From positions 7,426 to 71,425 of the forward strand of contig CAYRUH010000006.1 of the NCBI GenBank assembly GCA_964427415.1: a DNA stretch of 64,000 nt, read 5' to 3'. The notes beneath the pieces were generated by a model that worked only from the letters and a program-made list of their open reading frames with translations, ran no database searches and was not told where the DNA came from. Positions within the stretch are counted from its first letter, which is position 1. Each line of letters begins with the position of its first letter. Made by a program: the position numbers and the translations under genes. The DNA comes from an uncultured Woeseiaceae bacterium (GTDB lineage Bacteria; Pseudomonadota; Gammaproteobacteria; Steroidobacterales; Woeseiaceae). This document shows positions 40,219 through 62,625 of the stretch, piece after piece.

Positions 40219-40312
40219 GAGGGCCTTCAGGCCCGATTGATTAATGAATCGGGGCTAAAGCCCCTGCTACGGGCCCCTGCTACGGGCCCCTGCTACGGGC
40301 CCCTCCTACGAG
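40216..40312. repeat. REP-like hairpin cluster plus a 13-nt tandem repeat
   Basis: Hairpin GGGCC-TTCA-GGCCC lies within the 22-mer TAGGAGGGCCTTCAGGCCCGAT (40216-40237, starting with the TAG stop of the lyase gene). A second hairpin, GGGGC-TAAA-GCCCC, is at 40251-40264. Then CCCCTGCTACGGG x3 plus a degenerate fourth copy CCCCTCCTACGAG (40261-40312). Confidence 0.8.
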
Positions 40313-46421: not shown

Positions 46422-46632
46422 GGGCCGGCCCTTCTCTCCCTGCCAGCGGCGAGTATAGCCGATCGGCTGTCAAGGCTATCGACCGCTGTATAGCGTTTGT
46501 CAGATTCGGGGAAACGAGGCACCAATGCGTTTGTCGGTGAACAAAGCCCTGCCCCGGATGCGCGTTCTGCCAGACAGCGGTATCGCTTCTGCGGTGCTGC
46601 AGGAGCACCGGTCCGGCGTTCGAAAGATACGC

Positions 46633-47076
46633 TCAGGTGGCGGGTTCATTACCGTCGTCGATGAATTCGATGCCTTCCTGCTCGCACCACTCCCGCAGGG
46701 CAGCAAGCGTTTCGGACTCCTCGTATCGATACCACTGTTCCAGCTGATCGTTGCGCTCGAGCAACGCCTTGAAGCGGGAATACGCGCCCTTGCTGCGAAA
46801 GATATCTCGGACCTCATCATAAAACTCCGGCAGCTCCGCGCGAACAAATCGGAACACCAGGCTCTTTCCCAGGTCCAGGTCCATCTTGTGCGGAACGGCG
46901 ATATACAAAGCCGGATTATCAACATCGTCGGGCGCCGGTTCCGTATCAGCGACAGCCTCGGACACCCAGAAAATTTCGCCAGCCTGCCGTGATATGTAGG
47001 CGGCACATTCGTACAGTGCAAGGGAGCTGACGAAATCGTACGCCAGCTCCAGATCCTTGAGTCTTACCCGGGTCAT
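46633..47076 (-). CDS. hypothetical acidic protein (putative integron cassette ORF)
   Basis: 147-aa ORF in the lower-GC block. Its ATG lies 17 nt after the GTTAGAC core of the upstream attC-like site. No family recognised with confidence. Confidence 0.6.
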   Translation of the reverse strand: MTRVRLKDLELAYDFVSSLALYECAAYISRQAGEIFWVSEAVADTEPAPDDVDNPALYIAVPHKMDLDLGKSLVFRFVRAELPEFYDEVRDIFRSKGAYSRFKALLERNDQLEQWYRYEESETLAALREWCEQEGIEFIDDGNEPAT

Positions 47077-47093
47077 TTTGCTGTTCGCCGGCT

Positions 47094-47189
47094 GTCTAAC
47101 GTTCGAGCACAGCCGTGGGCAGCATCATGCCGGTGACCGAGGGCTGCAACAAGGGGTCAGGCCACGCTGTGCGCCGCGCCCCGTTCAAG
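47094..47189 (-). other. attC-like recombination site (about 96 nt)
   Basis: Minus strand reads CTTGAAC (overlaps the TGA stop of ORF 47185..47631)-GGGGCGCG-GCACAGCGTGG...CCAC[G]GCTGTGC-TCGAAC-GTTAGAC. Terminal AAC/GTT triplets are present, the 3' core fits GTTRRRY, and the internal arms pair with one bulged G. Confidence 0.5.
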
Positions 47190-47631
47190 AGCTGCGAACC
47201 ACCTGGATATTGAACTCCAGACGGATCTCTTCAAGCGATCGATCCAGGTAGTCGATGTGCTCAGCCCACGGCCAAGGCTTGCTCATTTGCCTGGCGCAGA
47301 TGAATGCGCGGGGCGACTTGGCAACCAGCTTGAAGATGTGCCGCGCGAGGTGGCGCCAGCTGTACTGCTTGAACAGGGCGAAAGCATCAGCCTCGGCATA
47401 ACCAGTGAGGTGCTTCCAAAAGCCCAGGGTGGTTCCAAAGATGGTGAATATCTTCAGCACACCCTCTCCGAAAAGCGAGGTATCGCAGCCGAAGATAACA
47501 TGCGCCGTGTCATGGCAGCGGAAAAATTCCTGCGCTTCAGGTGACACATCTCTTGCGGAGAATACGGCGGCATTTTGTTCATAGAACCGCCTGACACCCT
47601 CTCGAAGGGTAAGTGCAGTGTCGATATTCAC
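47185..47631 (-). CDS. Coq4-like metal-motif protein (putative integron cassette ORF)
   Basis: 148-aa ORF (GTG start) preceded by the AAGGAAGGAAG Shine-Dalgarno sequence. Contains CHDTAHVIFGCDTSLFGE, i.e. HDxxH-x11-E exactly. Confidence 0.65.
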   Translation of the reverse strand: MNIDTALTLREGVRRFYEQNAAVFSARDVSPEAQEFFRCHDTAHVIFGCDTSLFGEGVLKIFTIFGTTLGFWKHLTGYAEADAFALFKQYSWRHLARHIFKLVAKSPRAFICARQMSKPWPWAEHIDYLDRSLEEIRLEFNIQVVRSS

Positions 47632-47655
47632 CGGGTGCCGCTTCCTTCCTTAGCT

Positions 47656-47720
47656 GCCTAACGCCTAACGCCTCGCTTCAGCCGCGCGACAATCGCCTCA
47701 GCTGCAAGCGTTGGTTATGC
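47656..47720 (-). other. attC-like recombination site (58-65 nt, 3' core duplicated)
   Basis: Minus strand reads GCATAAC-CAA-CGCTT[G]CAGC-TGAGGCGATTGTCGCGCG-GCTGAAGCG-AGGC-GTTAGGC-GTTAGGC. The 5' 7-mer is 6/7 complementary to the GTTAGGC core (GTTRRRY). The arms pair perfectly apart from one extrahelical G. The next ORF's RBS starts 4 nt downstream. Confidence 0.6.
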
Positions 47721-47756
47721 ATTGTTACATGAACCTTCGACGCCTGAATGCGGACA

Positions 47757-48527
47757 CTCCACCTGCCAGCGAGATTTGTAGAGTGCGCAAACGGTCAGGG
47801 CCGGCGAAAGGTGTGGTTGGTCAGGAATACCAGGCTTTTGCGGGTATCGGGGTCGCGATAGCGGATACGCCGCAAGTACGCCGGGTAGTTTTGCGAGGCG
47901 TAGAAGCCGTTCAATGCCACGGTCTGGTCGCAGATCAGTCCGCAGCTGCGATCGACGGGGGCAGAGTACAGTCGCCGCGCATCGAGGTTTTTCTTGGCGC
48001 GAGTGACGAAGAAGCTGCCGGCCTGATTGAGGCGATAGACCCGCTCAAAGTCGAGATAGCCGCGATTCATGATGTAGAAGGCGCCCGGCTCGGGCAGCAG
48101 CATATCGAGGATGTTGACGTCGTGGAGGCGCCCGTCGGAGACGTGAATAAAGCTGGGGATCGCCCCCCCGCAGGTCGAGCAAGGTATGCACCTTCACCGC
48201 CGCCTTGGTGCTGCGGAAATTCGCCCATGGGAACAACGACAGACACAGATCGATCGTGGTGGAGTCGAGTGCATAAACGGTGTTATCGAGTTCCGCCCCG
48301 AGCGAGTCGCTGGCGTAGAGCTTGCGGGCTTGCGCTGCGAGGCAGCTCTCGATGTCGCGCAGGCTCTCGCGATAGGTGAGCTGGGCGAAGGCCGTGACGC
48401 GGAACTGCTCGGCGCAGGGCAGCGTGCGAATCCGATGGTTGCCTTGGTATCGCTTCACGATGCGGTGGAAGGTGGTCCACGGCAGGAAGTCCATGACTTG
48501 GGCGAACAATGTCTTGCCGGCATACAT
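47757..48527 (-). pseudogene. IS4-family (DUF4372 + DDE) transposase, two frameshifts and 3'-truncated
   Basis: Track ORFs 48045..48527 and 47795..48103 are consecutive parts of one transposase (MYAGKTLFAQVMDFLPWTTF...LTYRESLRDIE...LDLRG / IPSFIHVSDGRLHDVNILD...FVTRAKKN...). The frame changes at the C7 run 48163-48169 and again near 47806-47812. A third frame continues ALTVCALYKSRWQVE, then homology stops at about 47757. The expected C-terminal quarter is absent. Confidence 0.8.
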
Positions 48528-48939
48528 CGGCGTTCCTCGGAAACGGGGTTCCGAGACGGTCTCCGAGAGGGCAAGTCAGGTTCAAGTCGAAACCACCTCA
48601 AAAGGGCCGTTTTTGAAAATCAAATCAGACGCTTGGCTGCAGGCCCGGCGCAGTTAACCGGACAGTAGTGATGGCAGGACTAATTCGCGCATTACGTTTA
48701 CTTTGCCGTCGGATTAGCATTCTTCTTCTGGGCTCCACCAAGGATTGCTGCTGCAGCAGCTGCATAGATAGCTGCAACTGATCCGTAGATAGACGGCGTG
48801 CCGGGAATTGACGAAGACATTGCAATGCCGATAAACAGGCCAGCACCGCCGAAAGCAATTCCGGCGAGCGCATATGTGTATCTAGCCGTCGTTGTATTCC
48901 TTGTTCGGTGTCAAGAACGACTCGATCTATTGAAACCTA

Positions 48940-49028
48940 GCATAACGACGTACATGAGGGGCGTTTTTTTGGGAGGGTAGCCCGAAGGGCGCGGCAGGAA
49001 AACATCCCAGCCCATGTACTTGTTAGCC
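48940..49028 (-). other. attC-like recombination site (89 nt)
   Basis: Minus strand reads GGCTAAC-AA-GTACATGGGC...CCCCTCATGTAC-GTC-GTTATGC. The terminal 7-mers approximate RYYYAAC/GTTRRRY and are 5/7 complementary. There is a perfect 7-bp inner stem GTACATG/CATGTAC with flanking bulges. Confidence 0.6.
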
Positions 49029-49057
49029 ATCAAATACACCGCGGTAAACACGCTTGA

Positions 49058-49132
49058 TTAACCTCAATGTGGCAATAAATCAGGCCGCGATTTCCCGTTC
49101 GACTGCCTGATTTATTGCTACATTGAGGTTAC
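49058..49132. mobile_element. 75-bp miniature element made of two IS1380-type terminal inverted repeats (MITE-like, internally deleted IS)
   Basis: TAACCTCAATGTGGCAATAAATCAG (49059-49083) and its reverse complement with one mismatch (49107-49131), separated by 23 nt. The left about 50 nt match the left end of the IS remnant at 54982-55031 with 4 mismatches, including the last transposase codons (AVEREIAA* versus AVERAIAA*). Confidence 0.75.
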
Positions 49133-49240
49133 TCCCCTCTCTTATTCCGATTGTGCAAGCCTTTATACTACAAAAATAGCAGTAGTCAGGGATGTTGGAG
49201 TTCGCTAGGTTCCGGCAGGAGACAATGGGAGGATTCAGCA

Positions 49241-50542
49241 ATGCGATGGTTGTGCGGATTGGTACTGGTATTTTCAACGTTCAATTCCGGATTTATTGCA
49301 GCCGAAGCTACGGCATCGAACCAATCCGAAATTGTCGTTGCCTGGAATGAAGTCATTTTTAAGATGGCAGAGGCCGAGGACGGCTTTCTCACTCTGAAAG
49401 GGGTTCGTACGGCGGCAATGACACATCTCGCCATCCACGATGCGATATCGCACATCCACGATCAGTTCTCGACTGTCAGACATGACAAATCAGACAAAAA
49501 TGCAGAATCCGTCGCTGCAGCAAGCCAGGCCGCATTCACCATTGCCGTTGACCAGTATCCGGACCAATTAGCGACTCTCGACGCCCTAAATGATCGGTGG
49601 CTGGCAACTGTTGCGAGCGGAGGCGCGAAACAGAAGGGAATTGCGCTCGGTGAAGCGGCAGCGAATGCGGTTCTTAACGATCGAGCGGATGACGGCTGGG
49701 ATACCTCCGCCGACTACAAGTGGCACCCAATGGCCCCGGGGGTTTACGCAGAGTTTTCCGAGCACAGCGACACTCCGCAGGGTTTCATCTTTGGCGCTGG
49801 TTGGGGGAGTGCAAAAGGATTTGCATTAACGAGCCCGGATCAGTTTCGCTCGCCACCGCCGCCAACCATCGAAAGCGATGCCTACGCAAAGGCGTTTAAC
49901 GAAGTAAAATACGTTGGCCGATTCCAAAGCCTTGGTCGAAGCCCGGATCAGACTCATTTGGCGCTTTGGTGGAAAGACTTTGCGGAAAATTCGCACAATC
50001 GACTTGCGCGCGATCTCGCCATTAAAGAGAATCTGACACTATCCGAATCCGCAAGACTGTTCGCGTTGTTGAACGCGAGCATCTTCGACGCGTATGTCAG
50101 CGTATTCAATAACAAGTTTCACTACAATCATTGGCGACCTTATACCGCCATTCGCTGGGCGGCTAACGACGGCAACCCGAATACGGAGGCAGAGGAAAGC
50201 TGGACCAACACCCACCGCCACACCTATGCCTTTCCGTCCTATCCGTCAGCTCACGGAACAGCCTGTGCTGCAGCAATGTCCACGTTCGCAGAGGTGTTTG
50301 GAGACGATTACGCATTCACGATGCGCACTCCGATGGTCGATATCGCGGGACCGTTTTCCGGGAAGATCGAGATGCATCCGCCCACACGTGAGTTTGACAA
50401 TTTTTCCGAAGCTGCTGCGGAATGTGCCATCTCACGACTCTATCTAGGCATTCATTTTCGCTATGACTCCGATGCAGGTTATGAACTTGGTCAGCAAGTT
50501 GGACGCCAGGTGATCGAAAATCTACTGACACAAGTCCCGTAG
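49241..50542 (+). CDS. secreted PAP2-superfamily protein, vanadium-haloperoxidase / acid-phosphatase-like
   Basis: Start at ATG 49241 (MRWLCGLVLVFSTFNSGFIAAEA signal peptide). Three PAP2 motifs: KFHYNHWRP (KxxxxxxRP), PSYPSAHG (PSGH-type) and SRLYLGIHFRYD (SRxxxxxHxxxD). Confidence 0.8.
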   Translation: MRWLCGLVLVFSTFNSGFIAAEATASNQSEIVVAWNEVIFKMAEAEDGFLTLKGVRTAAMTHLAIHDAISHIHDQFSTVRHDKSDKNAESVAAASQAAFTIAVDQYPDQLATLDALNDRWLATVASGGAKQKGIALGEAAANAVLNDRADDGWDTSADYKWHPMAPGVYAEFSEHSDTPQGFIFGAGWGSAKGFALTSPDQFRSPPPPTIESDAYAKAFNEVKYVGRFQSLGRSPDQTHLALWWKDFAENSHNRLARDLAIKENLTLSESARLFALLNASIFDAYVSVFNNKFHYNHWRPYTAIRWAANDGNPNTEAEESWTNTHRHTYAFPSYPSAHGTACAAAMSTFAEVFGDDYAFTMRTPMVDIAGPFSGKIEMHPPTREFDNFSEAAAECAISRLYLGIHFRYDSDAGYELGQQVGRQVIENLLTQVP

Positions 50543-50681
50543 CCCTTCAAACGCGGAATAGTCACTCACGTTTGCCGCAAGAACGGTTGTACTGCGCAGA
50601 AGAGCCCGACGGCAACTGAACCAATTGGGCTTTCCACTTCGACAATACCGAACCGGAGACGCCGTCGGACTGAGCCTGTGC

Positions 50682-51257
50682 CTATCTTGGCTTCCACGTT
50701 TCCTTATCCATCACGAAATACTTTGCGTCGGGCGCGCTGGCAATGCGCTTGCCAAACGGCGTCATGCCCAGCCGCTCCATTACTTGAAACGACCCGGTGT
50801 TCGGTAAGTCGGCACCGGCGATAACTCGCGGTATCTCCAAGGTGTTGAATGAGTACTCGAGCAGTGCCGCTGACGCTTCGGTGGCATACCCCATCCCCCA
50901 AACGTTGGGGTGCAGTCCGTAGAGAAGTTCAACTTCACTCGACCCTTCAGGATGTCGAAGGGCAACAAAGCCTATAAGCTCGTTGCCGGCCGGGTGCGCG
51001 TTTTCACGCAGCGTCCAGAGACCCAGTCCTTCGTTTTTCGCGTCCTCCATGCTGGATACAACCGTTTCGCAGGCTCGCGAGGCTGAAATTTTCGCGTCGT
51101 CCCAAAGATACCTGCGAACTGCGGGCAGCGCCCAAAGTGCGTGGAGCCGACTGACATCTGCCTCCCTCACACGGCAGAGACTCAACCGCTCAGTGGTAAT
51201 GATCGCGCTCACAACCTCAAACTCCCACAGATCGCTCCAAGGCACGTAACACCGCAA
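50682..51257 (-). CDS. GNAT-family N-acetyltransferase (RimJ/RimL-like)
   Basis: 191-aa ORF. TERLSLCRVREAD...IGFVAL...WGMGYATEA...LEIPRVIAGADLPNTGSFQVMERLGM. The start may be an internal GTG. Confidence 0.85.
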   Translation of the reverse strand: MRCYVPWSDLWEFEVVSAIITTERLSLCRVREADVSRLHALWALPAVRRYLWDDAKISASRACETVVSSMEDAKNEGLGLWTLRENAHPAGNELIGFVALRHPEGSSEVELLYGLHPNVWGMGYATEASAALLEYSFNTLEIPRVIAGADLPNTGSFQVMERLGMTPFGKRIASAPDAKYFVMDKETWKPR

Positions 51258-51368
51258 GAGGTGGACATAGCCTTACGTCGCAATGGTCGTCGCAATATCA
51301 AGGCAATTGTCTTGACATCGATCCGCTTCACACTACATTTGAATCGCGATCGATGCGTACACACGAAC

Positions 51369-53915
51369 TCATGGCGGCGATACCGAAAAAGTCGCCGTCA
51401 CCGTGCGCGGTCCGTCCATGCTCTGGATGAAACAGCCCTCCTCGCCCTGGTCTTCGTCGCAGCCGCTCCAGCCGATACCGGTGGTGCCGGGTTCGGGAAT
51501 GGGGGTAAGCAGTACCGCCATGCCCAACGGAATTTCCTCGTCGCAGTCGTTGCCGTTCGTTCCGCACAGGATGCCGCCATCGGCGCCGCGGACGGTACCG
51601 CCGGGCCCGCCATTGATCAACACCTGCACGGTCAGCAGGGCGGTTTCTGTAGCAGTGTCGGTAACGTTCACACTCTCCGTCGTTTCGCTCGTGTTGCCAG
51701 CGTTGTCGGTGATTCTCAAGCGCGCCAGGTAGCTACCGGCGGCCGGATAACTGTGGCTCACGCTTTGGCCGCTGGCATCGAAGCTGCCGTCATCCTCAAA
51801 ATCCCACTGGTGGCTGGCGATGTCACCGGTCGAGTCCGCGGCGTCGAAGACGATGTTGGCATCGACGGTGGCGGGGTTCGGCGTGACGGTAAAGCTGGCG
51901 AGCAGTTCTGTTGGTGGCTCTCCCGGCTCTTCCGGCTCGCCGCGGCCGAAGCGGATCTTGCAATGCGTCGGGCCATTGACCTGCACGCTGGTAGTCAACA
52001 AGCCGGGGAAGCCGGTGCAGTCCCATTGCCATTGCGATTCACTGACAGAGGAGTTTTCATCCGGCGTCGCGGTCAGGGTCACCGTGGTGCCGGCCGGCAG
52101 ATTCTGCCAGCACATGATGCCGCGGCAATAGAGGGTTTGGTCGATGTCGGTGGTGGGGTCGGTGCCGCTGACGTCGCTGGTCACCTCGCCGCTGCCGAGG
52201 CCCTGTTTGTAAACGATGAGCCGGTGACCGATATCATTCACGCAGCTGTTGTCATCGCCCAGGGTCAGCACCGGTGTGGCACCCAGCGCGTTGATGCCGG
52301 TGCCGTCCCCGCGTTGGCCAGAAAGATTGTCGCCCCAGGCGTAGACGCGGCTGCCCAGGTCACGGCCCGTACCCGCTTCCTGGCAGGCGTTGATGTGGCG
52401 CCCAACGCTGACCGCCATGGCGTGGGAAGCACCCGCGGCGATCTGCCTGACGCCATCGAAATCGTTGTTGATCAACGGCGTGCTCAAGGCCTGGATGGGG
52501 GCAGGTTCCTGGACGACGCCGGCAATGCCCAGGCCGCCGCCCTGGCCCAAGCCAACGTCGCCCCATATCCAGACACTGCCTTCCGGGTCGCCGGTAACGG
52601 GGTCGCCGACGACTGCCGCCATACCAAATGCCCCGCCCGCGGCGATGCGCGAGACATTGCGCAAACCCGGAATGACGGCTGGCTCTGGGTCGCGGTCATT
52701 CGCAATGTCGGTGACACGCCCAAGCTGATTGCTATCGTTATCTCCCCAACTCCAGACACGATTTTCTCCATCGAGCGCCAGATAGAACGATCTCGCACCT
52801 ATCGATTCAGCGCCACCGGCCGCGATCTCACGTATATCCGGTAAACCATCTTTCACCTCCATGCTGTAACCTTCCGTGACAAGATCCTCGGGCTGATAAG
52901 CCTCCCAAACTTGATTGCTGTCATCCAGCGCCAAAAAGCCACCGCCGACATTGCGACCTCCTCCCGCGGCGATCGCCCTGATCCCATCGAGAAAGCCGTC
53001 TGCGGTAGGAATTGCAACCGGCACGAAGCCGTTATCCGGATAGACGGATTCGCCCTCTCGCTCGCGCACCCAGAGGGTCGTCAAAACGCCCCAGCCGAAA
53101 ACCTGGCCGTCACTGCGTAGCGCATACGACATGTCGTCGCCGGCCGCTACCGCCACGATATTGCCCAAGCCTGAGACCTGCACGGGAGTCTCTCGATCGG
53201 TATTAGTGCCGTCACCGAGAATACCGTCAATGTTTCTGCCCCAAGCCCATACCGCACCATCGGAATCCACAGCGACCGAATGAGAAGTCCCGCCGGCAAT
53301 CGCAACAATGTTGCTCAGATTGGCGATCCGCGCCGGCTGTGAACGATCTCGCCGAGAGCCATCGCCCAACTGGCCGCGGTCATTCGAACCCCAGGCCCAG
53401 ACACTGCCATCAGCGGTCAGCGCCAGAGAATGGGCCTCACCGGCCGCCAATTCGACGACCGGCGGCGCGGCTGCGGGCGATGCCAGAAACAGGTTGACGG
53501 GCACCTTCAAGGGCGTGCTGCCGCGGAATCCGCTCGCAGCGTAGTGATCATACTCGTGGTCGTCGGCGCTCAACCCCGCGTCAACGGTGCGCCACTCGCA
53601 GCCGACGTCGAAATCAGAGTCGGGGCAGGCTTCCGACGGGCCGATGTTGAGATACCGGGCCAACAACTCGGTTATGGTCAGTGTGCCGAAATCAAAACCC
53701 ACCGGATCGCCGGTAAAGGAGTCGACCGCGGTTGTTTCGACGGTTTCGCTTTCCCCCGGTCTTAGGACGACGGCCACGGGTTGCGATTGAAGAGTTGTGT
53801 TGTCGCCGATGGGAGTCGCTTCACCTCCTCCGACGTTGCCCTGCCCGCACCCGGCGAGAACGAGCAGCAAGAAAATGGCCATCAGGCGGGTCTTGTTGAT
53901 TGTTGCTTGGATCAT
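51369..53915 (-). CDS. RCC1-repeat (beta-propeller) lipoprotein with a PKD domain and two Cys-containing beta-repeat modules
   Basis: Start at ATG 53915 (MIQATINKTRLMAIFLLLVLAGCGQ lipobox). Repeated xVWAWGxNxxGQLGDG units (SVWAWGSNDRGQLGDG, AVWAWGRNIDGILGDG, RVWSWGDNDSNQLG, RVYAWGDNLSGQRGDG). The PKD-like segment is FTVTPNPATVDANIVFDAADS...HQWDFEDDG...SHSYPAAGSYLARLRITDNAGN. Confidence 0.85.
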   Translation of the reverse strand: MIQATINKTRLMAIFLLLVLAGCGQGNVGGGEATPIGDNTTLQSQPVAVVLRPGESETVETTAVDSFTGDPVGFDFGTLTITELLARYLNIGPSEACPDSDFDVGCEWRTVDAGLSADDHEYDHYAASGFRGSTPLKVPVNLFLASPAAAPPVVELAAGEAHSLALTADGSVWAWGSNDRGQLGDGSRRDRSQPARIANLSNIVAIAGGTSHSVAVDSDGAVWAWGRNIDGILGDGTNTDRETPVQVSGLGNIVAVAAGDDMSYALRSDGQVFGWGVLTTLWVREREGESVYPDNGFVPVAIPTADGFLDGIRAIAAGGGRNVGGGFLALDDSNQVWEAYQPEDLVTEGYSMEVKDGLPDIREIAAGGAESIGARSFYLALDGENRVWSWGDNDSNQLGRVTDIANDRDPEPAVIPGLRNVSRIAAGGAFGMAAVVGDPVTGDPEGSVWIWGDVGLGQGGGLGIAGVVQEPAPIQALSTPLINNDFDGVRQIAAGASHAMAVSVGRHINACQEAGTGRDLGSRVYAWGDNLSGQRGDGTGINALGATPVLTLGDDNSCVNDIGHRLIVYKQGLGSGEVTSDVSGTDPTTDIDQTLYCRGIMCWQNLPAGTTVTLTATPDENSSVSESQWQWDCTGFPGLLTTSVQVNGPTHCKIRFGRGEPEEPGEPPTELLASFTVTPNPATVDANIVFDAADSTGDIASHQWDFEDDGSFDASGQSVSHSYPAAGSYLARLRITDNAGNTSETTESVNVTDTATETALLTVQVLINGGPGGTVRGADGGILCGTNGNDCDEEIPLGMAVLLTPIPEPGTTGIGWSGCDEDQGEEGCFIQSMDGPRTVTATFSVSPP

Positions 53916-54054
53916 TGTTGGCTCCTTCGTCCTTGTAGGGAGTGCCCGACGGCATGTCGCTGGATCGATCCCCCCGAAGTCGAAAGGCACGACTCTAGCG
54001 GCGAGTTCTTGTATCAACTAGTATCGTTTCTGTAGTAACTCAGGAGCCGCGGCG

Positions 54055-54825
54055 ATGCCAACGCGTACACCGACGTCATCTACCTACGGACAATATTGTC
54101 CCCTTGCCCTCGCCGCCGAGCTGTTGTGCCGACGTTGGTCGATCCTGGTGATCAGCCGCGTGTTGGACGGCTGCCGGACGTACAGCGAGATCCATAGAGG
54201 CGTACCGAAGATCTCGCCGTCGCTGCTGTCGACGCGTCTGTCGGAGCTCGAGGATGCCGGGCTGATCCGGCGCGAAAAAATTAAGGGTGAGAAACGCTAT
54301 CGGTATCTGCCGACCGACGCTGGTGCGGACCTTGAGCCCGTGATCAACAGCATGGCTGTCTGGGGTCAGCAGTGGTCGCGGGATATGAAGATGGATGATC
54401 TCGATCCCGCTTTCCTCGCCTGGAGCATGTCAACGCGCATCGACATCGACGCAATGCCGCCGGGGCGTACCGTGATCGAGTTCGAGTTCTCTGGAACACC
54501 GGCCGGACTTCGGCGCTTCTGGTTGATTAGCGAAGACGGCAAGATCGACATGTGTTTGAAGGACCCGGGCTACGAGACAGATTTGTACGTCCGGTCGAAC
54601 ATGCGTCGATTCGTTGAGGCGTGGCGCGGTTTTCGCGATCTCAGAGCGGAGATACGCGCCGGCACTATTCGCTTGACGGGACCGAAAGCACTACGTTCGG
54701 CATTCCCGAACTGGATGCTGTTGAGCGGTCTTGCGATTCATCGACGCCGCGCGACTGGCCGCGAAAGCAAGTTGAGCGAATGCGGTCGAACGGTCAGGTT
54801 GAAACAGCGCGCTACAAAAGCATAG
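54055..54825 (+). CDS. HxlR-family winged-helix transcriptional regulator with a C-terminal extension
   Basis: 256-aa ORF. YCPLALAAELLCRRWSILVISRVLDGCRTYSEIHRGVPKISPSLLSTRLSELEDAGLI is the HxlR signature. Divergent from the RCC1 lipoprotein gene. Confidence 0.85.
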   Translation: MPTRTPTSSTYGQYCPLALAAELLCRRWSILVISRVLDGCRTYSEIHRGVPKISPSLLSTRLSELEDAGLIRREKIKGEKRYRYLPTDAGADLEPVINSMAVWGQQWSRDMKMDDLDPAFLAWSMSTRIDIDAMPPGRTVIEFEFSGTPAGLRRFWLISEDGKIDMCLKDPGYETDLYVRSNMRRFVEAWRGFRDLRAEIRAGTIRLTGPKALRSAFPNWMLLSGLAIHRRRATGRESKLSECGRTVRLKQRATKA

Positions 54826-54978
54826 CTGAAGCGGAAACCGGATTAATGCCCATTTGACCGACTGGGCCGAGGCCGGTGCATTCGAGAACGCCGCGGCCGC
54901 AACGATCGCGGCAGAACTTGCGGTATCTGATGAACGGTCCTTTACTATTCCCTGCAAGGCCATTTCGCAACCAGTGAC

Positions 54979-55726
54979 TAGCCTCAATGTCGCAATAAAT
55001 CAGGCCGCGATCGCCCGTTCGACGGCCTGAAACCGCTCCCGGATAATCGCGTTGCTGCCGACATCGAGGGTTGATCGGCCGTCGGGCCGCACGAGCAGGC
55101 CGGCCCGATTGATGAACTGATAACGCAAGGTGTGAATCGACTGGAACAGGCGGATCGTGCGGCGCTTGCGGTTCGAGCCTCGGCGCTCCGTTGTCCGGGT
55201 CTGCAGCGCGCGCATCAGATTGAACGCGAGAATGCTCATGATCTGCGAGGCGCTGTTGGCCTCGTAGCGCTGCGTCGGCACGCAGTCGAAGGCAAAGCCG
55301 CCCTTGAGCTCGCCGTAAACCTTCTCGTGAGTCCCGCGGCCGCAGAGGAAGAACCACAAGGTTCGCCCCGAGACCGGCTTGTTGGTCACGATCACCAGCA
55401 CCAAAAGCATCATTGGCACCGAACCGAAATCGCTGGCCGGCAACGCCGCCGGGGCGCCGCGCAGATGACCCTTGAAATCCAGCGCTCGAAGAAACCGGGC
55501 GATCAGCTCCAGCCCGGCGAACGACGTCAGCCCTGGCGCCTCGTAGCGCAGCGACAAATCTCCATTGATCCGGCGCCGCAAATCTGCTCTGCTTAACCTC
55601 ACGAGATGTGGCCTCTCCTGGATGGCTTTGTTTAGGTCTGCAAACCCAACAATACCAGCAGTGACGCCCATCTCGCCTTATCCCTTCACCCGATCAATCG
55701 CCCGGTTTTTGCAACATCGAGGTTAA
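54979..55726 (-). mobile_element. IS1380-family insertion sequence remnant (about 0.75 kb, internally deleted; transposase ORF 55000..55671)
   Basis: The 223-aa ORF keeps the N-terminal LTSFAGLELI motif. It also keeps the C-terminal R-x3-E-x6-K box (GRGTHEKVYGELK), the ANSASQIMSILAFNL segment and the TLRYQFINRAGLLVR tail. The central DDE region (about half the expected length) is missing. Terminal repeats are CCTCAATGTCGCAATAAATCAG (left) and TTTTTGCAACATCGAGG (right). Exact ends are uncertain by 3 nt either way. Confidence 0.75.
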
Positions 55727-55861
55727 CTATATCTATTTGACGATTATGTCATGAGAGAAAACTATCACAAGCGGCGAATAATGGATGAGGCGCGTCGGCA
55801 AGTTCCCGAATACTCTGAGGCTGATGGGGAGATATGTTTCGCGAACCAGTAGGCAGGATAT

Positions 55862-56050
55862 TTGACGTCATCGCAGCCGCCCAAATTGCTTGATCGGGTC
55901 CGCGAAACGATCCGGTTGCACCAGTACAGTGATCAAACAGAGAAGGCATATGTCAGCTGGATTCGACGCTGAATCATCTTCCACGGAAAGCGCCAGCCGG
56001 CGGACCTGGGCGCGATGGAGGCCACCGCTCGACGCGTGGAAGCTGGGGCG
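55862..56050 (+). pseudogene. intI: integron-integrase-type tyrosine recombinase, N-terminal SAM-like domain remnant
   Basis: My translation from TTG 55862 is LTSSQPPKLLDRVRETIRLHQYSDQTEKAYVSWIRR*IIFHGKRQPADLGAMEATA. It aligns residue for residue with the IntI1 segment [49 protein letters not shown]. An in-frame TGA replaces the conserved Phe. Homology is lost after about 56010, and the catalytic domain is absent because the next gene ends at 56107. Confidence 0.7.
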
Positions 56051-56106
56051 TTAACGCGGTGAGGAGTCCGATGGATACGTGATCCGGGCTTGCAGCTCTG
56101 CCGGCT

Positions 56107-58833
56107 TCAGCTTTGCTGGTCCAGCGCGCGGCGGAACGGCGCGATGATCCACTCCTGCATGCCGTCGCGTTCCATCGCGGCGATGGTCTTGCGGAGCAGC
56201 GCGGTGCCTTCTTCCCGGCGGCCGTCGAGAAGCAGCGCCCAGCCCCTGAGCGCATCGATGCGTGCCGGCCACTCATCGCCCGGGCTGCCCGCGGCGAGCT
56301 GCGCGGGGTCGAGGCCGTCGATCAGCGCCGTCGCCGCTCCGCCGTCGCCCGTGTCGAGCAGCCCCTGCGCCAGATAGTAGTTCATCACCTGCACGCCGGG
56401 AGTGCCCGGGCCCATCATGCGCTCGAAGACGTCGCGCGCGGCGACAAGTCTCGGGATGGCGTTACCGGCCTCGCCCAGCTGGACCAGGATGACGCCTTCA
56501 TTGCCTCCCGCCATGACGCAGGTGAGGTGGTCCGCGCCCTGAGTGGCACAGGTCGTTGCGCGCACATCGCTGATCAACGGCAGGGCTTCGGCCCAGCGCC
56601 CGCCCGCCGCGTAGAGATTACCGAGCACACTCTTGCCTTCTGCCAGTTGGTTCGAACCAGGGCCGAAGGCCGCGGCCAGTGCGCGGACGGCCTGGTTGAG
56701 CGCGAGCTCGGCGTCCTCGAGTCGTCCGGCATGCAGTAGCGCAGCGCCATAATGCAGTATTGCCGTCGCGCGGCTCGAGTCGGCGACGCCTGCCTCCGCG
56801 AAGCGCGCTTCATCCTGCAGCGATTCGAGCAAATCCACCGCTTCGTCCTGGCGGCCGCTGCGGACATACCCCTGAGCAAGGTCCAGTTTGAGCCCGTGTC
56901 TGGCGCGCGCGTTGTCCGGCCCCGCACGATCGAGCCGCGCCAGCGCTTCTTCGTAATAGGTCACGGCCGGTTCGATCTGCGCCTGCATCAGGTGCAGGCG
57001 TCCGCGCGCACGCGCCGCGGCGAGGGCGACGGCGTCGTCCTGCTCGAGCAGCGCCGCGGCATGCCGGTCGGCGTCATCCAGAACCTCGGCTGCTGCGGCG
57101 TAGTCAGAGGCGTTGACCAGCGATTCGCCGAGCCGGTAACCGGCCACGAGCGTCCGTGGATGATCGGGCCCGAGCATCGTTGCAAACAGTGACGCCACCC
57201 GGCGGTGATGTTCAGCGGCGGTCCTGAAGTCCTGGAGGCCGGTGTAGATTTCCCCCGCAGTCTCGCGGATCGTCGCTTCCATGGCGGGATCGGCGGCGAA
57301 ACGGGCCTCGATGCGATCCGCCGCACGGGAGAGCGCTTCCCGCAGCGTCGCGTCATAGCCGGCGCCGGGTTCACGCGGATCCGCATTTATCATGATGTCG
57401 CGCAGGAACGTTGCCGTGGCCTCGGCGCGTGCGGCCTGTTCCAGGGCTGTGTGCTGAGCCGCTCTCGCCCGCAGAAAGAGGAGGCTGCTGGCGGCAACGC
57501 CAACCAGCAGTACGACGCCTGCCGCAATGGCCCAGGGACGGCGCGAGCGGGCGCGCTCGAGCGCCGCCTGGGCGGCGAGTGCCCGTGATTCCGCTGCTTC
57601 CAGTCGTGCGCGCTCGCGACGGCGCTCCTCGAGCCCGCGCAGGCGCTGCGCCAGTTCAGAGGCAGAGACGATTCGCTGCGCGGGATTGCCGGCGGTCGCC
57701 CCGGCGATATCCAGTGCGACCAGCTCGTCGGCAATGTCGCTTTCCCAGCCGGTGGTGAGCGGTCTGCCGAGGTCGGCCGCGAGTATCTGATACAGCAGCA
57801 TGCCGAGTGCGTAGACGTCGCTCTTTACCGTGGCTGCCTCGCCGGCGATGATCTCCGGGGCGATATAAAGCGGGGTGCCGAAGCTCGAATCGCTGGTGGA
57901 GTCCACCGTCCGCGTGAGCCCGAGGGGCGTCACGCCCAGTTCGCCCAGTCGTCCGGGTTCCATCAGGCGGCCGCTGCCGAAATCGGTGAGCCGCACCTGC
58001 ACTCTGCCGTCGCCATCCTCTTCGATCAGGATGTTGGCGGGTTTCAGGTCCTTGTGCAGCACGCCCACGTCATGGGCGGCGGCGACTGCGTCGATCGCCT
58101 GCAGGGCAAGCTCCAGTCGTGCCTGCGGCGCCAGTGCGGCGAGCCTGGCGTTATCTTCAGCCCAGGCCGGCAGACTGTCTCCGCCATACTCGCACTCGAG
58201 AAAAAACGGCTCGCTTTCGAAGTTCCAGTCGACGACACGCACGATATCGGCGCGCTCACCGAGTGCTTCGCGCAGGATGCGTGAGAGCGTCGCCTCGCGC
58301 TTGAGCGCGGCCAGTCTTTCGCCGTCCGGGCTGAACTTGTAGACCCGGTGCTCGCCGGTCTTGCCGTGGCGGGCGAGCCATACCTCGCTGGCGCCGGCGC
58401 CGGAAAGCTGGCGCGTCAGGCGGAAGTTCGGCCGGCCGGGAACAGCCTGACCGGTCTTCAGGTCGTGCTGGCTGACGAGACGCCGGCCCGCCGCGACACG
58501 CTCCACCTTGCCATCGAGTCGGTATCCGATGCGGGGCTTGGTGACGATGAATCCGGCGTTGGCCTCGCCGAGTGCCTTGCGCAATTTGGCCACCGCATTG
58601 GCAAGCACATTCTCGACAGTGATGCGGCCTTCCCAGACGGTGTCGAGGAGTTCTTCCTTGGTGACGACTTCGCCGGCATGACGGAGCAGGGTACTCAGCA
58701 CCTCGAGGGGGCGGCGTTCGAGCTCGACGGGCAGTCCGGCCACCCGCAGCTCGAAGCGCGATTCGTCAAACTCTGCCGCGCCGAAACGGTAGAGATAAAG
58801 CGCCCCGTGGCGCGACGGCTCCGAATCGCTCAT
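56107..58833 (-). CDS. hybrid regulator: OmpR/PhoB-type winged-helix DNA-binding domain + Ser/Thr protein kinase + TM segment + TPR sensor region
   Basis: 908-aa ORF. wHTH: LEVLSTLLRHAGEVVTKEELLDTVW...TKPRIGYRL. Kinase: G-loop SGAGASEVW, VYKF lysine, HKDLKPANIL, TDFGSG, YIAPE. TM: WAIAAGVVLLVGVAASSLLFL. About 430 aa of TPR-like repeats follow. Confidence 0.85.
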   Translation of the reverse strand: MSDSEPSRHGALYLYRFGAAEFDESRFELRVAGLPVELERRPLEVLSTLLRHAGEVVTKEELLDTVWEGRITVENVLANAVAKLRKALGEANAGFIVTKPRIGYRLDGKVERVAAGRRLVSQHDLKTGQAVPGRPNFRLTRQLSGAGASEVWLARHGKTGEHRVYKFSPDGERLAALKREATLSRILREALGERADIVRVVDWNFESEPFFLECEYGGDSLPAWAEDNARLAALAPQARLELALQAIDAVAAAHDVGVLHKDLKPANILIEEDGDGRVQVRLTDFGSGRLMEPGRLGELGVTPLGLTRTVDSTSDSSFGTPLYIAPEIIAGEAATVKSDVYALGMLLYQILAADLGRPLTTGWESDIADELVALDIAGATAGNPAQRIVSASELAQRLRGLEERRRERARLEAAESRALAAQAALERARSRRPWAIAAGVVLLVGVAASSLLFLRARAAQHTALEQAARAEATATFLRDIMINADPREPGAGYDATLREALSRAADRIEARFAADPAMEATIRETAGEIYTGLQDFRTAAEHHRRVASLFATMLGPDHPRTLVAGYRLGESLVNASDYAAAAEVLDDADRHAAALLEQDDAVALAAARARGRLHLMQAQIEPAVTYYEEALARLDRAGPDNARARHGLKLDLAQGYVRSGRQDEAVDLLESLQDEARFAEAGVADSSRATAILHYGAALLHAGRLEDAELALNQAVRALAAAFGPGSNQLAEGKSVLGNLYAAGGRWAEALPLISDVRATTCATQGADHLTCVMAGGNEGVILVQLGEAGNAIPRLVAARDVFERMMGPGTPGVQVMNYYLAQGLLDTGDGGAATALIDGLDPAQLAAGSPGDEWPARIDALRGWALLLDGRREEGTALLRKTIAAMERDGMQEWIIAPFRRALDQQS

Positions 58834-58957
58834 GGGACTTGCCGCTCCCTGTCTGGAATGCGCCCAGAGGTGATGGCCGGCGCGTCAACGCGTTCCGCGC
58901 GTCTTCCGAAGCGCCGTGGGCAGACACAAGCCTCTGATCCGTCGCAACAATCTAGCG

Positions 58958-58977
58958 CGTTAGCAATCCGTTAGCAA
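58958..58977. promoter_or_regulatory. Tandem direct repeat CGTTAGCAA-n2-CGTTAGCAA (11-bp period); candidate binding site for the adjacent winged-helix regulator
   Basis: Read directly at 58958-58966 and 58969-58977. It lies in the 289-bp divergent intergenic region between the hybrid regulator (start 58833) and the membrane-protein/lipoprotein pair (start 59123). Confidence 0.4.
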
Positions 58978-59122
58978 CGCGTGAAGGTTTCGGTGACGGA
59001 CTGCGTCATCTTGCTGCGTGGCGGCCCCTATCAGAGGGATAGCGGAGTCTCCCGCGCCAGGCAGCGCGGCCGCCGCGCATCAAGTGAGCATCGAACGTGG
59101 AAACAGAAGAAGGAATAACGAC

Positions 59123-59509
59123 ATGAAAATTGCAATCGTCATACTGGCTGTTCTCGGGGCGCTGTCCTCGGGGTTTCTGGGGGTCAACTGGATGAACGAT
59201 CTGGGCGCGCTTGGCGAGATGAGCGAGCTGGAACGGATGGCGGCCAAGTCCATGGCTGCCGCGCAGGGACAGTCGCTGGACAAGATGGGCGCGGCGGCCT
59301 TCATCCTCATCTTCGGCGCCATGGCGGGATTCGTCGGCGCCTTCTTCGCGATGAAGAATCGCCACTCGCTCGCCGGCGGGCTGCTCCTCGGCGCCGGCAT
59401 CCTGCCCGTTCTGGTCCAGCCGCAGGCCGTGGTGTTCACGGCGTTACTGATCATCGGCGGTGGGCTCGCGTTTTTCATGCATTCGAAGAGCAAGGCGGTA
59501 GCATCATGA
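59123..59509 (+). CDS. hypothetical integral membrane protein (4 TM)
   Basis: 128 aa from ATG 59123 (MKIAIVILAVLGALSSGFLGV...). GGAATAA SD-like sequence upstream. ATGA overlap with the next ORF. Confidence 0.6.
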   Translation: MKIAIVILAVLGALSSGFLGVNWMNDLGALGEMSELERMAAKSMAAAQGQSLDKMGAAAFILIFGAMAGFVGAFFAMKNRHSLAGGLLLGAGILPVLVQPQAVVFTALLIIGGGLAFFMHSKSKAVAS

Positions 59510-60705
59510 AAGCCCCATATCTGCCGATAATCGGGGTCATCGCTCTCGCCGCCGCCTGTGGCGGGGCCGGTGACAAGGATCGGGCGCGATACGTCGCTGC
59601 CTGCATCGCCGGTGGCGATACGGAAACCGAGTGCGCCTGTCAGGGCGATACGCTCCTGGGCCAGCTCGACGAGCCGACCTTTACCGCGCTCGCTGACTTC
59701 GCCGAGGGCATGGCCGAAGCGAGCGCTGACGCCCAGGGCCGGATCGCCATGGGCGCGCTGACCAATCCGCAGCTGGTGTCCGCGCTCGATAAGACGGAAG
59801 CGGCGGCGCGGACCTGCAAACAGGCAGCGGCACTGGAAGCGGCCAGGGCCGAGGTCATCGCGATCGAGGCGGTGCGGGAGCAGCGCCGCAAGCAGGCTGC
59901 CGCACGCAAGTGCCCGCATACGCCTGCCATGGGTCCGCTGCTGCCGGGCATGCCGGTGCATGATGTGGCGGATCTGCGCCCGGGCATGAGCTTCGAGGAT
60001 GTGGAAGCCGTGCTCGAGTGCCGCGGCAATATTCTCAGCTTCGACGTCGCCGAGAGCTGGGTGCGCAAGACTCAGGGCCTGGCCACGCGGCAGCTGCTGC
60101 GCGCGGCGGATGGCGACATCTGTCCGGCCGAGGCGCGGATCGCAGGCGGCGAGGCCTGCGAGGACGGCGGCTACGACTTCGAGCCGCTGCAGAATGTCGG
60201 CGAGGAGTTCATGGTGGCTTTCACGGGTCTGCCGCAAGCAGAGCGTGCGGGGATCATCTGGCGGCGAACGGTTTTTTCCGCCGACGAGTATCCGACCGTC
60301 TCGTCACTGCGCGAAGCACTGACCGCCAAATACGGGCAGCCGCATCTGGCGGCGAATCAGGAGGGCTATTACAGCCCGGGCCACCGTCGCGGCTCGCTGA
60401 CCTATAGCTGGGTCTATGACCCGTCGCAACGGCCGATCCCGGATAGCGACGGCACCCTTCGCTCCCGTTGCGTGAGTGGTCCGCGCCCGACATTCGAGCG
60501 TCAGATGAGCTGGAATACCGGCTGCGGTATCACCGTGCGAGCCGAGATCATGCCGGCACCGGGGAATACGGTACTCGCCAGCGAACTGAATGTCGTGGTC
60601 GTGGACCAGAAGCGCTTCAATGATGCCGTGGGTCAGTTCGACGTCGATCTGAAAGCGGCCGTGGAGGCCCAGCACGCAGGCAAGGGGGCGGCGCCGGATC
60701 TCTGA
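59506..60705 (+). CDS. hypothetical Cys-rich lipoprotein
   Basis: 399-aa ORF. Lipobox VIALAAAC. Ten further cysteines are spread through the mature part. No family recognised. Confidence 0.65.
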   Translation: MKAPYLPIIGVIALAAACGGAGDKDRARYVAACIAGGDTETECACQGDTLLGQLDEPTFTALADFAEGMAEASADAQGRIAMGALTNPQLVSALDKTEAAARTCKQAAALEAARAEVIAIEAVREQRRKQAAARKCPHTPAMGPLLPGMPVHDVADLRPGMSFEDVEAVLECRGNILSFDVAESWVRKTQGLATRQLLRAADGDICPAEARIAGGEACEDGGYDFEPLQNVGEEFMVAFTGLPQAERAGIIWRRTVFSADEYPTVSSLREALTAKYGQPHLAANQEGYYSPGHRRGSLTYSWVYDPSQRPIPDSDGTLRSRCVSGPRPTFERQMSWNTGCGITVRAEIMPAPGNTVLASELNVVVVDQKRFNDAVGQFDVDLKAAVEAQHAGKGAAPDL

Positions 60706-60710
60706 TCCGG

Positions 60711-60730
60711 CCTCGCCGCGGCCGCGGCGA
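60711..60730 (+). terminator. perfect 20-nt GC-rich palindrome (possible transcript-end hairpin, no U-tract)
   Basis: CTCGCCGCGG/CCGCGGCGAG begins 6 nt after the lipoprotein stop. Not a canonical intrinsic terminator. Confidence 0.3.
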
Positions 60731-60957
60731 GCGGCTCCTGCGAAAAAACGGAGTTTCCGGGCGCTTCTAATGGGATCCTCCGGCTTGCGAAAATGTACGA
60801 TGACGCTCGGCCGGAGGATCAACCCGCCAGCAGTGCCGGTCTCAGGGCGATTTCCAGCGGTATCATGTGAGCGAGTTTTTCCGCCGCCTCCGGATCGTGA
60901 TTATCGCGGCACTGCAACCGATCGATCAGCGTGCCTTAATCGTCTCCCAGCCCAACG

Positions 60958-61404
60958 TCATCGCCTTGCCCGGAATGCGTTGAATAAACGTATGCTACCG
61001 AGCAGTACGAATGGAAGACCTGTGACAGCAAATAGGGTTGCTTTAGCCCAAAGCCGGAGGAAGGAGGCCACGATTGGCGGACGTTGATCAAGTGGGTCGT
61101 AGCGCACGGAGATGCTTTCACCGATCTCGTAGAGCCGGCCCCCTGCGCCTACCTGGCTCGTAAAGCGCCGCGCACGACCAGCCTGGTCGGTGAACTCCAC
61201 AACGGGGTAGTACAGCAGCGCTGACACCTTGCTGGGCGCCGACTCGTAGCCGGATTCATAATCGACAACGATACCCGGTACCGCCTTCATTCCATCCAGT
61301 AGGTCGGCAGATGCGGTCCATGCCTGCAGCGCATGGTACCAGGGGACCAGACCGACCATTAAGAGGATCAAGGGCGGTAGAACACGTCGATTATTTTCGT
61401 CCAT
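60958..61404 (-). CDS. DUF3592-like membrane protein (TM - beta domain - TM)
   Basis: 148 aa from the internal ATG 61404 (MDENNRRVLPPLILLMVGLVPWY...YYPVVEFTD...RYDP...). Upstream track codons are Arg/Pro-rich and overlap the cysteine-synthase 3' end. Confidence 0.55.
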   Translation of the reverse strand: MDENNRRVLPPLILLMVGLVPWYHALQAWTASADLLDGMKAVPGIVVDYESGYESAPSKVSALLYYPVVEFTDQAGRARRFTSQVGAGGRLYEIGESISVRYDPLDQRPPIVASFLRLWAKATLFAVTGLPFVLLGSIRLFNAFRARR

Positions 61405-61583
61405 GTGTAGTCCTGTAGCCCAACGAACCGGCTTATCGATAAAGGCCATTGGACGTCTTCCGTGACGTCTCCTGCAATTCGCTCCCGATACCGATATCTC
61501 CGGCGGCGCCGTCGCCACCCGTGGCCGCGCAGCTCTCTTCTTTGAGCGAAATGTACCGAGGTTCGCCCCCTGAATGATCAATA

Positions 61584-61605
61584 TAGTAGGGCCTTCAGGC
61601 CCGAT
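61584..61605. repeat. REP-like hairpin, 21/22 identical to 40216..40237, same orientation
   Basis: TAGTAGGGCCTTCAGGCCCGAT. The TTCA loop carries the (reverse-strand) TGA stop of the cysteine-synthase-like gene, and the stem encodes its last residues D-R-A. Confidence 0.75.
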
Positions 61606-62611
61606 CCCGCCGTCCGTCCAGCCACTCCGGCAGCGACAGCCCCTTGGACTCCAGATAGGCGCCGTTGAACAGCCGCTCGCGGTAGCGCATGGCGCCGTCG
61701 CAGAGGACTGTGACGATAACGTGACCCGGACCCAGCTCACGCGCCATGGCCATGGCTCCGCCCACATTGATGCCGCTGGAACCGCCGAGCACGAGGCCTT
61801 GCTGGCGGATCATGTCGTAGACCAGCGGGATGGCTACTTCATCCGTTATGCGGTAGGCCAGGTCGATGGCGGCGCCTTCGAGATTGGCGGTGATGCGCGA
61901 GTTGCCGATACCCTCGGTAATGGAGCTGCCTTCGATCTTTATCTCACCGTTCCTGTAGAGCTCGTACAGCCCGGAGCCGCCCGGATCGGCCAGGCCGATC
62001 TTCACCTCCGGTTTGCACGCCTTCAGATACTGCGACACGCCGGCCAGCGTGCCGCCGGTGCCGACGGCGCAGATGAAAGCGTCCATTTCGCCGTCGGTCT
62101 GGTCCCAGATCTCCGGGCCGGTGGTCTCGGCGTGGAAGTCCCGGTTGGCGGTGTTGTCGAACTGGTTCGGCCAAAAGGCACTGCCCGGCTCCCGCGCGTT
62201 CATCTCCTCGGCCATGCGGCCGGAGACGTGGACGAAGTGGTTGGGGTCGCGAAAGGGCACGGCGGGGATGAGCCTGACGTCGGCGCCGTAGGTGCGCAGC
62301 GTGTCGATCTTCTCTTTGCTCTGGGTGTCCGGCATGACGATGATGCTCGGATGCCCCAGTGCATTGCCGACCATGGCCAGCCCGATACCGGTGTTGCCTG
62401 CCGTGCCCTCGATGATGGTGCCGCCGGGCTTCAGCTCGCCGGTGGCCTGGGCACGGCGCACCATGCCGAGCGCAGCGCGGTCTTTCACCGAGCCGCCCGG
62501 GTTCATGAACTCGGCCTTGCCGAGGATCTCGCAGCCGGTTTCCTCGGACGCCCGGTTCAGCCGAATCAGGGGCGTCGCGCCGATGGCGTCGATGAGCTGC
62601 CGCGCGTCCAT
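61595..62611 (-). CDS. cysteine synthase / O-acetylserine sulfhydrylase-like PLP enzyme (fold-type II, no CBS domains)
   Basis: 338-aa ORF. NPGGSVKDR, TAGNTGIGLA and GTGGTLAGV motifs. Confidence 0.85.
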   Translation of the reverse strand: MDARQLIDAIGATPLIRLNRASEETGCEILGKAEFMNPGGSVKDRAALGMVRRAQATGELKPGGTIIEGTAGNTGIGLAMVGNALGHPSIIVMPDTQSKEKIDTLRTYGADVRLIPAVPFRDPNHFVHVSGRMAEEMNAREPGSAFWPNQFDNTANRDFHAETTGPEIWDQTDGEMDAFICAVGTGGTLAGVSQYLKACKPEVKIGLADPGGSGLYELYRNGEIKIEGSSITEGIGNSRITANLEGAAIDLAYRITDEVAIPLVYDMIRQQGLVLGGSSGINVGGAMAMARELGPGHVIVTVLCDGAMRYRERLFNGAYLESKGLSLPEWLDGRRDRA

Positions 62612-62625
62612 GGCGATGTCCTTCC

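Follow-up and report, generated by a model that had tools for sequence, protein, structure and literature searches.

The window, the whole stretch of 64,000 nucleotides that was analysed here, comes from an uncultured bacterium of the Woeseiaceae, a little-studied family of marine sediments. It contains a remnant of an integron integrase gene (intI), an attI-like region, a segment bracketed by IS ends and an array of gene cassettes with attC sites, all of which lie on a strain-specific island between two core genes, a TPR gene (44076-46421) and a kinase gene. The features are collected in Table 1, together with other loci that carry truncated or split intI genes.

Table 1. Features of the island and of loci used for comparison; positions refer to the window unless a contig is named
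Feature	Position	Strand	Remarks
Strain-specific island	46466..56106		~9.6 kb; 54-61% G+C vs 66% in the flanks
Cassette ORF after attC C	46633-47076	-	147 aa, UPF0158
attC site C	47094..47162	-	69 nt; R'' GCCTGAC ... R' GTTAGAC; R2 19.8 bits, E = 0.01
Cassette ORF between attC B and attC C	47185-47631	-	148 aa, weak Coq4-like match
attC site B	47663..47720	-	58 nt; GCATAAC-CAACG-CTT-G-CAGC ... GCTG-AAG-CGAGGC-GTTAGGC
Truncated IS4-family element	47721..48620 (approximate)	-	In the cassette flanked by attC A and attC B
attC site A	48940..49028	-	89 nt; R'' GGCTAAC ... R' GTTATGC; R2 17.3 bits, E = 0.04
MITE-like palindrome	49055..49134		80 bp; two back-to-back copies of the same IS1380-type inverted repeat
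IS-bracketed passenger DNA	49135..54975		Four ordinary genes (next four lines)
PAP2/vanadium-haloperoxidase-like gene	49151-50542	+	463 aa
GNAT acetyltransferase	50682-51257	-	
RCC1-repeat/PKD protein	51369-54017	-	882 aa
HxlR-type regulator	54055-54825	+	
IS1380-family element, internally deleted	54976..55727	-	Inverted repeats at both ends; transposase fragment 55000-55671
attI-like region	55728..55876		Between IS end and intI remnant; first ~45 bases best conserved with L002
Promoter-like site	55743..55770	-	TTGTGA, 16 nt spacer, TG-CATAAT; points towards the cassettes
intI remnant, N-terminal part	55877..56029	+	PPKLLDRVRETIRLHQYSDQTEKAYVSWIRR, stop, IIFHGKRQPADLGAMEATA; integron-integrase profile covered up to about position 48
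intI remnant, extreme C-terminal part	56047..56082	+	GVNAVRSPMDT and TGA, in a +1-shifted frame
Kinase gene	56107-58833	-	Stop codon 24 bp past the intI stop
L113/L114 relic loci	L113 10001-20264; L114 10001-11413		Truncated intI; attC sites beside it in L113
L118	10001-14400		100-aa N-terminal intI relic and 4 attC sites
L116	7700-12800		intI split by ~1.7 kb, and one attC

The intI remnant

A preliminary description of this DNA had assigned 55862-56050 on the plus strand to the N-terminal SAM-like domain of an integron integrase. We reproduced the peptide quoted there exactly (LTSSQPPKLLDRVRETIRLHQYSDQTEKAYVSWIRR, stop, IIFHGKRQPADLGAMEATARRVEAGA), with the in-frame TGA at 55970-55972. The frame has a possible TTG start at 55862, is closed upstream by an in-frame TAG at 55850 and codes for the N-terminal ~50 residues of such an enzyme, including TIRLHQYS, a signature peptide of its lineage. 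When the stop was read through, PF13495 (Phage_int_SAM_4) matched above threshold (44.3 bits, E = 2.5e-11; cutoff 27), although coverage was limited to profile positions 1-46 of 85; the 50 residues are only about half of a SAM-like domain. A scan of NCBIfam at E <= 10 returned integron-integrase models only, namely PRK15417 (E = 1.2e-12) and TIGR02249 (E = 4.2e-10), in agreement with the assignment. The match to the class 1 integron-integrase model was partial, at 47.7 bits against a cutoff of 435 that applies to the whole protein. In a PDB search with the remnant, the sole tyrosine recombinase found was IntI4 of V. cholerae (2a3v, E = 7e-5).

To collect homologues, 1.84 billion representative proteins were searched exhaustively with HMMER, which gave 10,483 matches. 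All of the best 150 match both TIGR02249 and PRK15417, and models of the XerC, XerD and XerA types match 39-69 of these 150, more weakly. The TIGR02249 cutoff of 265 bits was passed by five of the eight longest homologues scanned (P0004, 496 bits; P0040, 467; P0042, 366; P0022, 348; P0131, 304). A word-indexed protein search with the 61-aa fragment gave no match, as too few 5-mers were shared. The match of the remnant to an integron integrase is far beyond chance. We also observed that ~60 of the best 150 homologues, among them P0004, P0040, P0042 and P0022, match the fragment twice, having an extra N-terminal SAM-like module before the integron-integrase region; this region is complete in two such proteins, P0004 (459 aa) and P0040.

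The limits given in the preliminary description hold as far as they go, but the relic continues beyond them with a tail in another frame. This tail corresponds to the integron-integrase tail G-x-G-V-x-S-P-L-D, downstream of the catalytic Tyr region, and a degraded deletion junction (56030-56046) separates it from the N-terminal part. An HMM search with the tail alone detected nothing; the call rests on an 11-residue motif and on DNA homology to the equivalent part of L002 (25 of 32 bases identical), a 1.25-kb Logan contig (SRR24605001) that encodes P0049, the closest library relative of the relic (74% identity).

An internal deletion has removed most of intI, roughly codons 57-296, and leaves ~50 N-terminal codons and ~11 C-terminal codons with the stop in another frame. 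PF00589 did not match in the relic, the catalytic domain with its R-H-R-Y residues is absent, and tblastn with full-length IntI against the whole window found only residues 1-54 and no other piece of the gene. The deletion must be internal because the C-terminal tail and stop survive, because the relative on L002 is fused in the same N+C manner, and because no other piece of intI is present. Thus, the preliminary description was correct in that no catalytic domain remains and that the kinase gene ends at 56107, but its explanation that the kinase gene had cut intI short is ruled out, since the last codons and the stop of intI survive before the kinase stop. The additional domain specific to IntI (the IntI_Cterm patch) is deleted as well. 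It is present in the homologues P0004 and P0131, where the TIGR02249 match spans the region and the motif is visible in the sequence. Therefore, the locus is an IntI-derived pseudogene and not a functional member of the family.

Cassette array and IS-bracketed segment

To find attC sites we used two covariance models, neither of which is that of IntegronFinder. R1 was made from 15 class 1 attC sites of annotated plasmid integrons, which were checked for the architecture R''(7)-5-L''(3+1+4) ... L'(4+3)-5/6-R'(7). Loops were trimmed and 5-nt spacers were padded with N in the alignment, since full-length attC sites could not be aligned in register by MAFFT. R1 recovered its training sites and one held-out attC, and it found 27 sites in a set of 84 further loci, most of them integrase loci from metagenomes. 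Where the geometry is divergent, these sites are upstream of intI and on the other strand; in loci of the inverted type they are downstream and on the strand of intI. R2 was built only from the 27 environmental matches of R1.

In the window, R1 found only attC B (32.4 bits, E = 8e-6), and not A and C. The top three matches of R2 were B (38.9 bits, E = 2e-7), C and A, all on the minus strand and within 2 kb; in a control of ~65 kb from the empty-site loci of relatives, R2 found nothing at E <= 0.1. Sites A and C are weak and depend on R2, and the E-values are roughly calibrated. A strict scan of the window for attC architecture matched B only; simulated sequence gives ~0.7 matches per window, so that one match carries no significance by itself. 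Folding energies of the attC regions were no better than those of shuffled sequences (z -0.3 to -1.9), Rfam gave no match in the window at gathering thresholds, and searches for direct repeats upstream of metagenomic intI genes revealed no homogeneous attC families. A scan for AAC...GTT hairpins was discarded as unspecific in G+C-rich DNA. Past the last cassette ORF no further attC was detected, and a fourth site suspected there by eye (~46540-46625) was supported by neither R1 nor R2.

The cassette array is real. Both minus-strand cassette ORFs start 20-35 nt past the G/TTAG.. crossover of the preceding attC (B and C). The minus-strand orientation of the attC sites at lower coordinates fits the plus-strand intI, as had been noted before, and the same arrangement was seen in divergent metagenomic control integrons. 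The N-terminus of the IS4 transposase (DUF4372) lies at 48045-48527. Between attC A and the IS4 fragment (48698-48873), the longest ORF has 82 aa and an unconvincing sequence, and an overlapping frame encodes a Gly/Ala-rich membrane-like peptide whose first start codon is an internal ATG. The gene that this cassette once carried may be degraded.

From TAAC (55724-55727), the end of the IS repeat, the window is homologous to L002. In L002, this TAAC is the complement of a GTTATAC core where the first cassette begins, and a small divergent ORF of the cassette type starts 12 nt after the core. The conserved block on the intI side reads TAACTATATYTATTTGACG. From this comparison, we infer that the region between the IS end and the relic was attI. 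One promoter-like site was found, compared with 0.3 expected from shuffles, and it is partly conserved in L002; it is a weak candidate for Pc.

The position of the homology breakpoint at the TAAC/GTTA core indicates that the IS-bracketed segment sits at the junction of attI and the first cassette. The bracketed segment is 6.7 kb long, and the relic is 6.83 kb from the first attC, with IS ends bracketing the DNA in between; this agrees with the spacing of ~6.8 kb estimated earlier. The transposase profile of IS1380 matches in its C-terminal third only (65.5 bits against a cutoff of 180), and the element is a deleted derivative without a full DDE transposase. The inverted repeats of the IS1380 type end in ..GGTTA(A/C), and one IS end (55700-55727) shares the GTTA of the presumed attI core, which may reflect targeting, coincidence or capture by an integrase. 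The 80-bp palindrome at the other side resembles an attC superficially (TTAAC ... GTTAC) and was unscored by the attC models. The passenger genes (49151-54825) have 58% G+C, compared with 66% in the host. They are not cassettes, since the covariance models found no attC in the passenger block. Target-site duplications were searched for around the MITE, the IS and the composite, and none were found; moreover, only 26 bp are left between the palindrome and attC A, so the gene of the first cassette was probably lost in an IS-mediated rearrangement.

The island and related intI relics

Using the kinase protein, we retrieved 24 loci, the closest of which belong to Lentisalinibacter orientalis (Woeseiaceae) and to a Woeseiaceae MAG (L003, L012). 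The TPR gene and the kinase gene are ~30 bp apart in both of these genomes, which shows that 46466-56106 is a 9.6-kb insertion. The preliminary description had proposed to look for an intact intI at the orthologous position; no intI sequence was found at any of the 24 kinase loci, and the relatives are without the entire island. There was no clean duplication at the island ends, and no near match to the island among 72,556 plasmids. An independent Logan contig, L001, is identical to 55672-62806 and stops at the IS (55672); for the continuity from relic to array through the IS elements we rely on the source assembly. Should that assembly be in error at the IS, the common insertion site between two core genes still places relic and array in one island. 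This bears out the earlier view that the locus is an inactivated integron platform and not an isolated CALIN.

Some observations were made on the surrounding core region. Three loci labelled as Thioalkalivibrio (L004, 'Thioalkalivibrio sp. XN8', L005 and L006) have a kinase orthologue with 80-81% protein identity and ~78% DNA identity, and the 84-85% identity in Woeseiaceae genomes is not far above this; these labels may be misassignments. Upstream of the island, at 40260-40311, there are four copies of a 13-nt tandem repeat, GCCCCTGCTACGG.

The relic of the window is not the only fusion of the two ends of intI. P0049 matches TIGR02249 at positions 1-47 and 287-314 of 315, so that it is an N+C fusion too, and L002 can be aligned to the window from 55724 to about 56100, with 78% identity over the N-terminal codons. 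The ORF of L002 is still open, with 104-125 aa. On the N-terminal side the relic of the window is longer by 11 codons (PADLGAMEATA), and on the C-terminal side L002 is longer by ~18 codons (..GHADVKSTQVYTHV..); both end points of the deletions differ, and neither of the two lies within the other. The 40 N-terminal codons common to both show 27 differences, 7/1/19 at codon positions 1/2/3, corresponding to a dN/dS of ~0.04. This indicates that purifying selection acted on the frame during most of the time since the window and L002 diverged. The differing end points, together with this signal of selection, favour two separate events, and the two relics are most simply read as independent, recent deletions of an intact gene.

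A third lineage, P0151 and P0152 on L113 and L114, has an N+C fused relic of 87 aa with a junction common to two genomes. It differs at 3/4/3 sites by codon position (dN/dS ~0.7), while its neighbouring genes have a dN/dS of 0.06-0.16, and it evolves neutrally. L113 has at least eight attC sites downstream of the relic on the same strand (inverted geometry). L113 and L114 diverge from ~280 bp downstream of the relic, where L113 continues with DUF433... and L114 with GIY-YIG/RAMA. Like the window, L002 and L113/L114 carry a gutted intI, with ~45-60 N-terminal and ~25-35 C-terminal codons, which adjoins cassette-type genes or attC arrays. They are unlike the window in that their junctions are others, in that the cassettes of L113/L114 are downstream on the same strand, and in that the ORF of L002 is open. 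The L113/L114 lineage was retrieved with an N+C query, and the recurrence of such fusions is partly an ascertainment effect. Microhomology between the regions coding for HPxEMGxxEV and GHxDVxTTxIYTHV was considered as a source of recurrent N+C deletions and rejected, because the longest word shared across the two regions has a mean of 5.1 nt, compared with 5.4 nt in controls (22 intact genes). Short ORFs that match PF13495 only are frequent on long contigs, and attC sites adjoin the ORF in two of the four such contigs sampled.

Interpretation and relation to known integrons

Taken together, we give a probability of about 0.88 to the reading that the locus is a decayed chromosomal integron, namely a CALIN with an intI relic, at the edge of a foreign island of ~9.6 kb. 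The original platform would have consisted of intI on the plus strand, attI and then the minus-strand cassettes. This platform is disabled by no fewer than four changes. An internal deletion has removed the whole catalytic domain and the IntI-specific insertion, and the remaining intI, presumably afterwards, has acquired the nonsense codon and the frameshift at the junction. The 6.7-kb segment, with the IS1380 derivative and its 80-bp miniature copy, lies at the junction of attI and the first cassette, and the truncated IS4 element within one cassette is a further disabling change. In this state the locus can no longer capture or shuffle cassettes by itself, and its cassettes would be mobile only with an integrase supplied in trans.

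Other readings of the same data have to be weighed. One is that the fragment comes from a tyrosine recombinase outside the integrons, such as a XerC/D-like, phage or transposon enzyme, and that attC-like hairpins lie nearby by chance. PF13495 is indeed not exclusive to integron integrases, and the insertion that defines IntI is deleted here, so it cannot be inspected. However, even at E <= 10 no NCBIfam family of other recombinases was found for the fragment, and the best 150 homologues, which the preliminary description had named as a point where its reading might fail, all match integron-integrase models, with fewer and weaker matches to XerC/D models. The C-terminal piece of P0049 also scores best on TIGR02249, the L002 relic is accompanied by a divergent cassette-type ORF right after its GTTATAC core, and the attC sites of the window have the matching orientation; an origin outside the integrons is very improbable. 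There is just as little reason to expect that the cassettes are an independent CALIN made by an integrase encoded elsewhere, and that the intI relic arrived at the same locus by a separate event. This would suit the distance between relic and first attC with its two IS-type elements, and the lack of target duplications that would show how the pieces were joined, but both pieces are in one insertion between core genes that are adjacent in relatives, share the same lowered G+C and have the relative orientation of a normal integron, and matching IS inverted repeats flank the DNA between them, one repeat lying directly against the attI core.

It is also conceivable that the N+C fused short ORF is a selected small protein, such as a peptide that binds DNA at attI or at the cassette promoter, and that the copy in the window died recently. 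The low dN/dS between the window and L002, the open ORF of L002 and the fact that the closest known relative is likewise an N+C fusion speak for it. Were it so, the peptide could still bind attI or control cassette expression after recombination was lost. Nevertheless, we consider this unlikely: the deletion end points differ on both sides, for which two independent recent deletions are the simpler account, the copy in the window has a stop codon and a frameshift, the L113/L114 relic, the only lineage whose junction is common to two genomes, is neutral, and 50 residues fall well short of a whole SAM-like domain. A reading that is more likely than a selected mini-gene is that N-terminal-only relics of intI are common beside 'orphan' CALINs and are systematically missed, because pseudogene screens use C-terminal profiles.

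A decayed integron is a known kind of genomic fossil rather than a new system; what is new here is the host. The locus resembles the class 1 platform (intI1/attI1/Pc/attC) in the divergent orientation of intI and cassettes, in the GTTRRRY crossover directly upstream of the cassette ORFs and in attC B, which has exactly the canonical architecture R''-5 nt-L''(3+1+4) ... L'(4+3)-5/6 nt-R'. It is unlike that platform in that there is no context of Tn402 or a 3'-conserved segment, there are no resistance genes and the integrase is dead. Chromosomal integrons with an inactivated intI have been reported in Xanthomonas. The present one is similar in that it is chromosomal, has cassettes of unknown function and has an integrase killed by deletion, nonsense codon, frameshift and IS elements, but its host belongs to the Woeseiaceae, and it lies on a strain-specific island that is absent from the nearest sequenced relatives, instead of being conserved in a lineage.

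By definition, a CALIN has two or more attC sites, detected with a covariance model and separated by less than 4 kb, and no integrase (Cury et al. 2016, IntegronFinder, PMC4889954). Three same-strand sites within this distance were found here with our own covariance model. A complete integron has a functional intI beside the array, and the intI of the window has the deletion, the TGA and the frameshift. Cury et al. (2016, PMC4889954) found intI pseudogenes near only 15 of 279 CALINs (5%), in a screen with the profiles IntI_Cterm and PF00589 at more than 50% coverage. Like those CALINs with a pseudogene (PMC4889954), the locus combines two or more attC sites inside 4 kb with an intI pseudogene no further than 10 kb away, lacks a functional integrase and has IS elements associated with the decay. 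Unlike those pseudogenes, the relic has lost the parts recognised by IntI_Cterm and PF00589 and is known by an N-terminal SAM-like segment and an 11-codon tail. Therefore, that screen would overlook it and would list the locus among CALINs that have no pseudogene.

The value of the locus is mainly methodological, as by itself it is one more decayed chromosomal integron. It demonstrates that traces of the integrase can persist beside an array that would be classed as an orphan CALIN. Given that attC sites adjoin two of the four sampled ORFs with PF13495 only, scanning the surroundings of CALINs with PF13495 in six frames could change the estimated share of arrays that arose from integrase loss. 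If N-terminal relics are common, loss of intI would explain more CALINs than the reported 5%.
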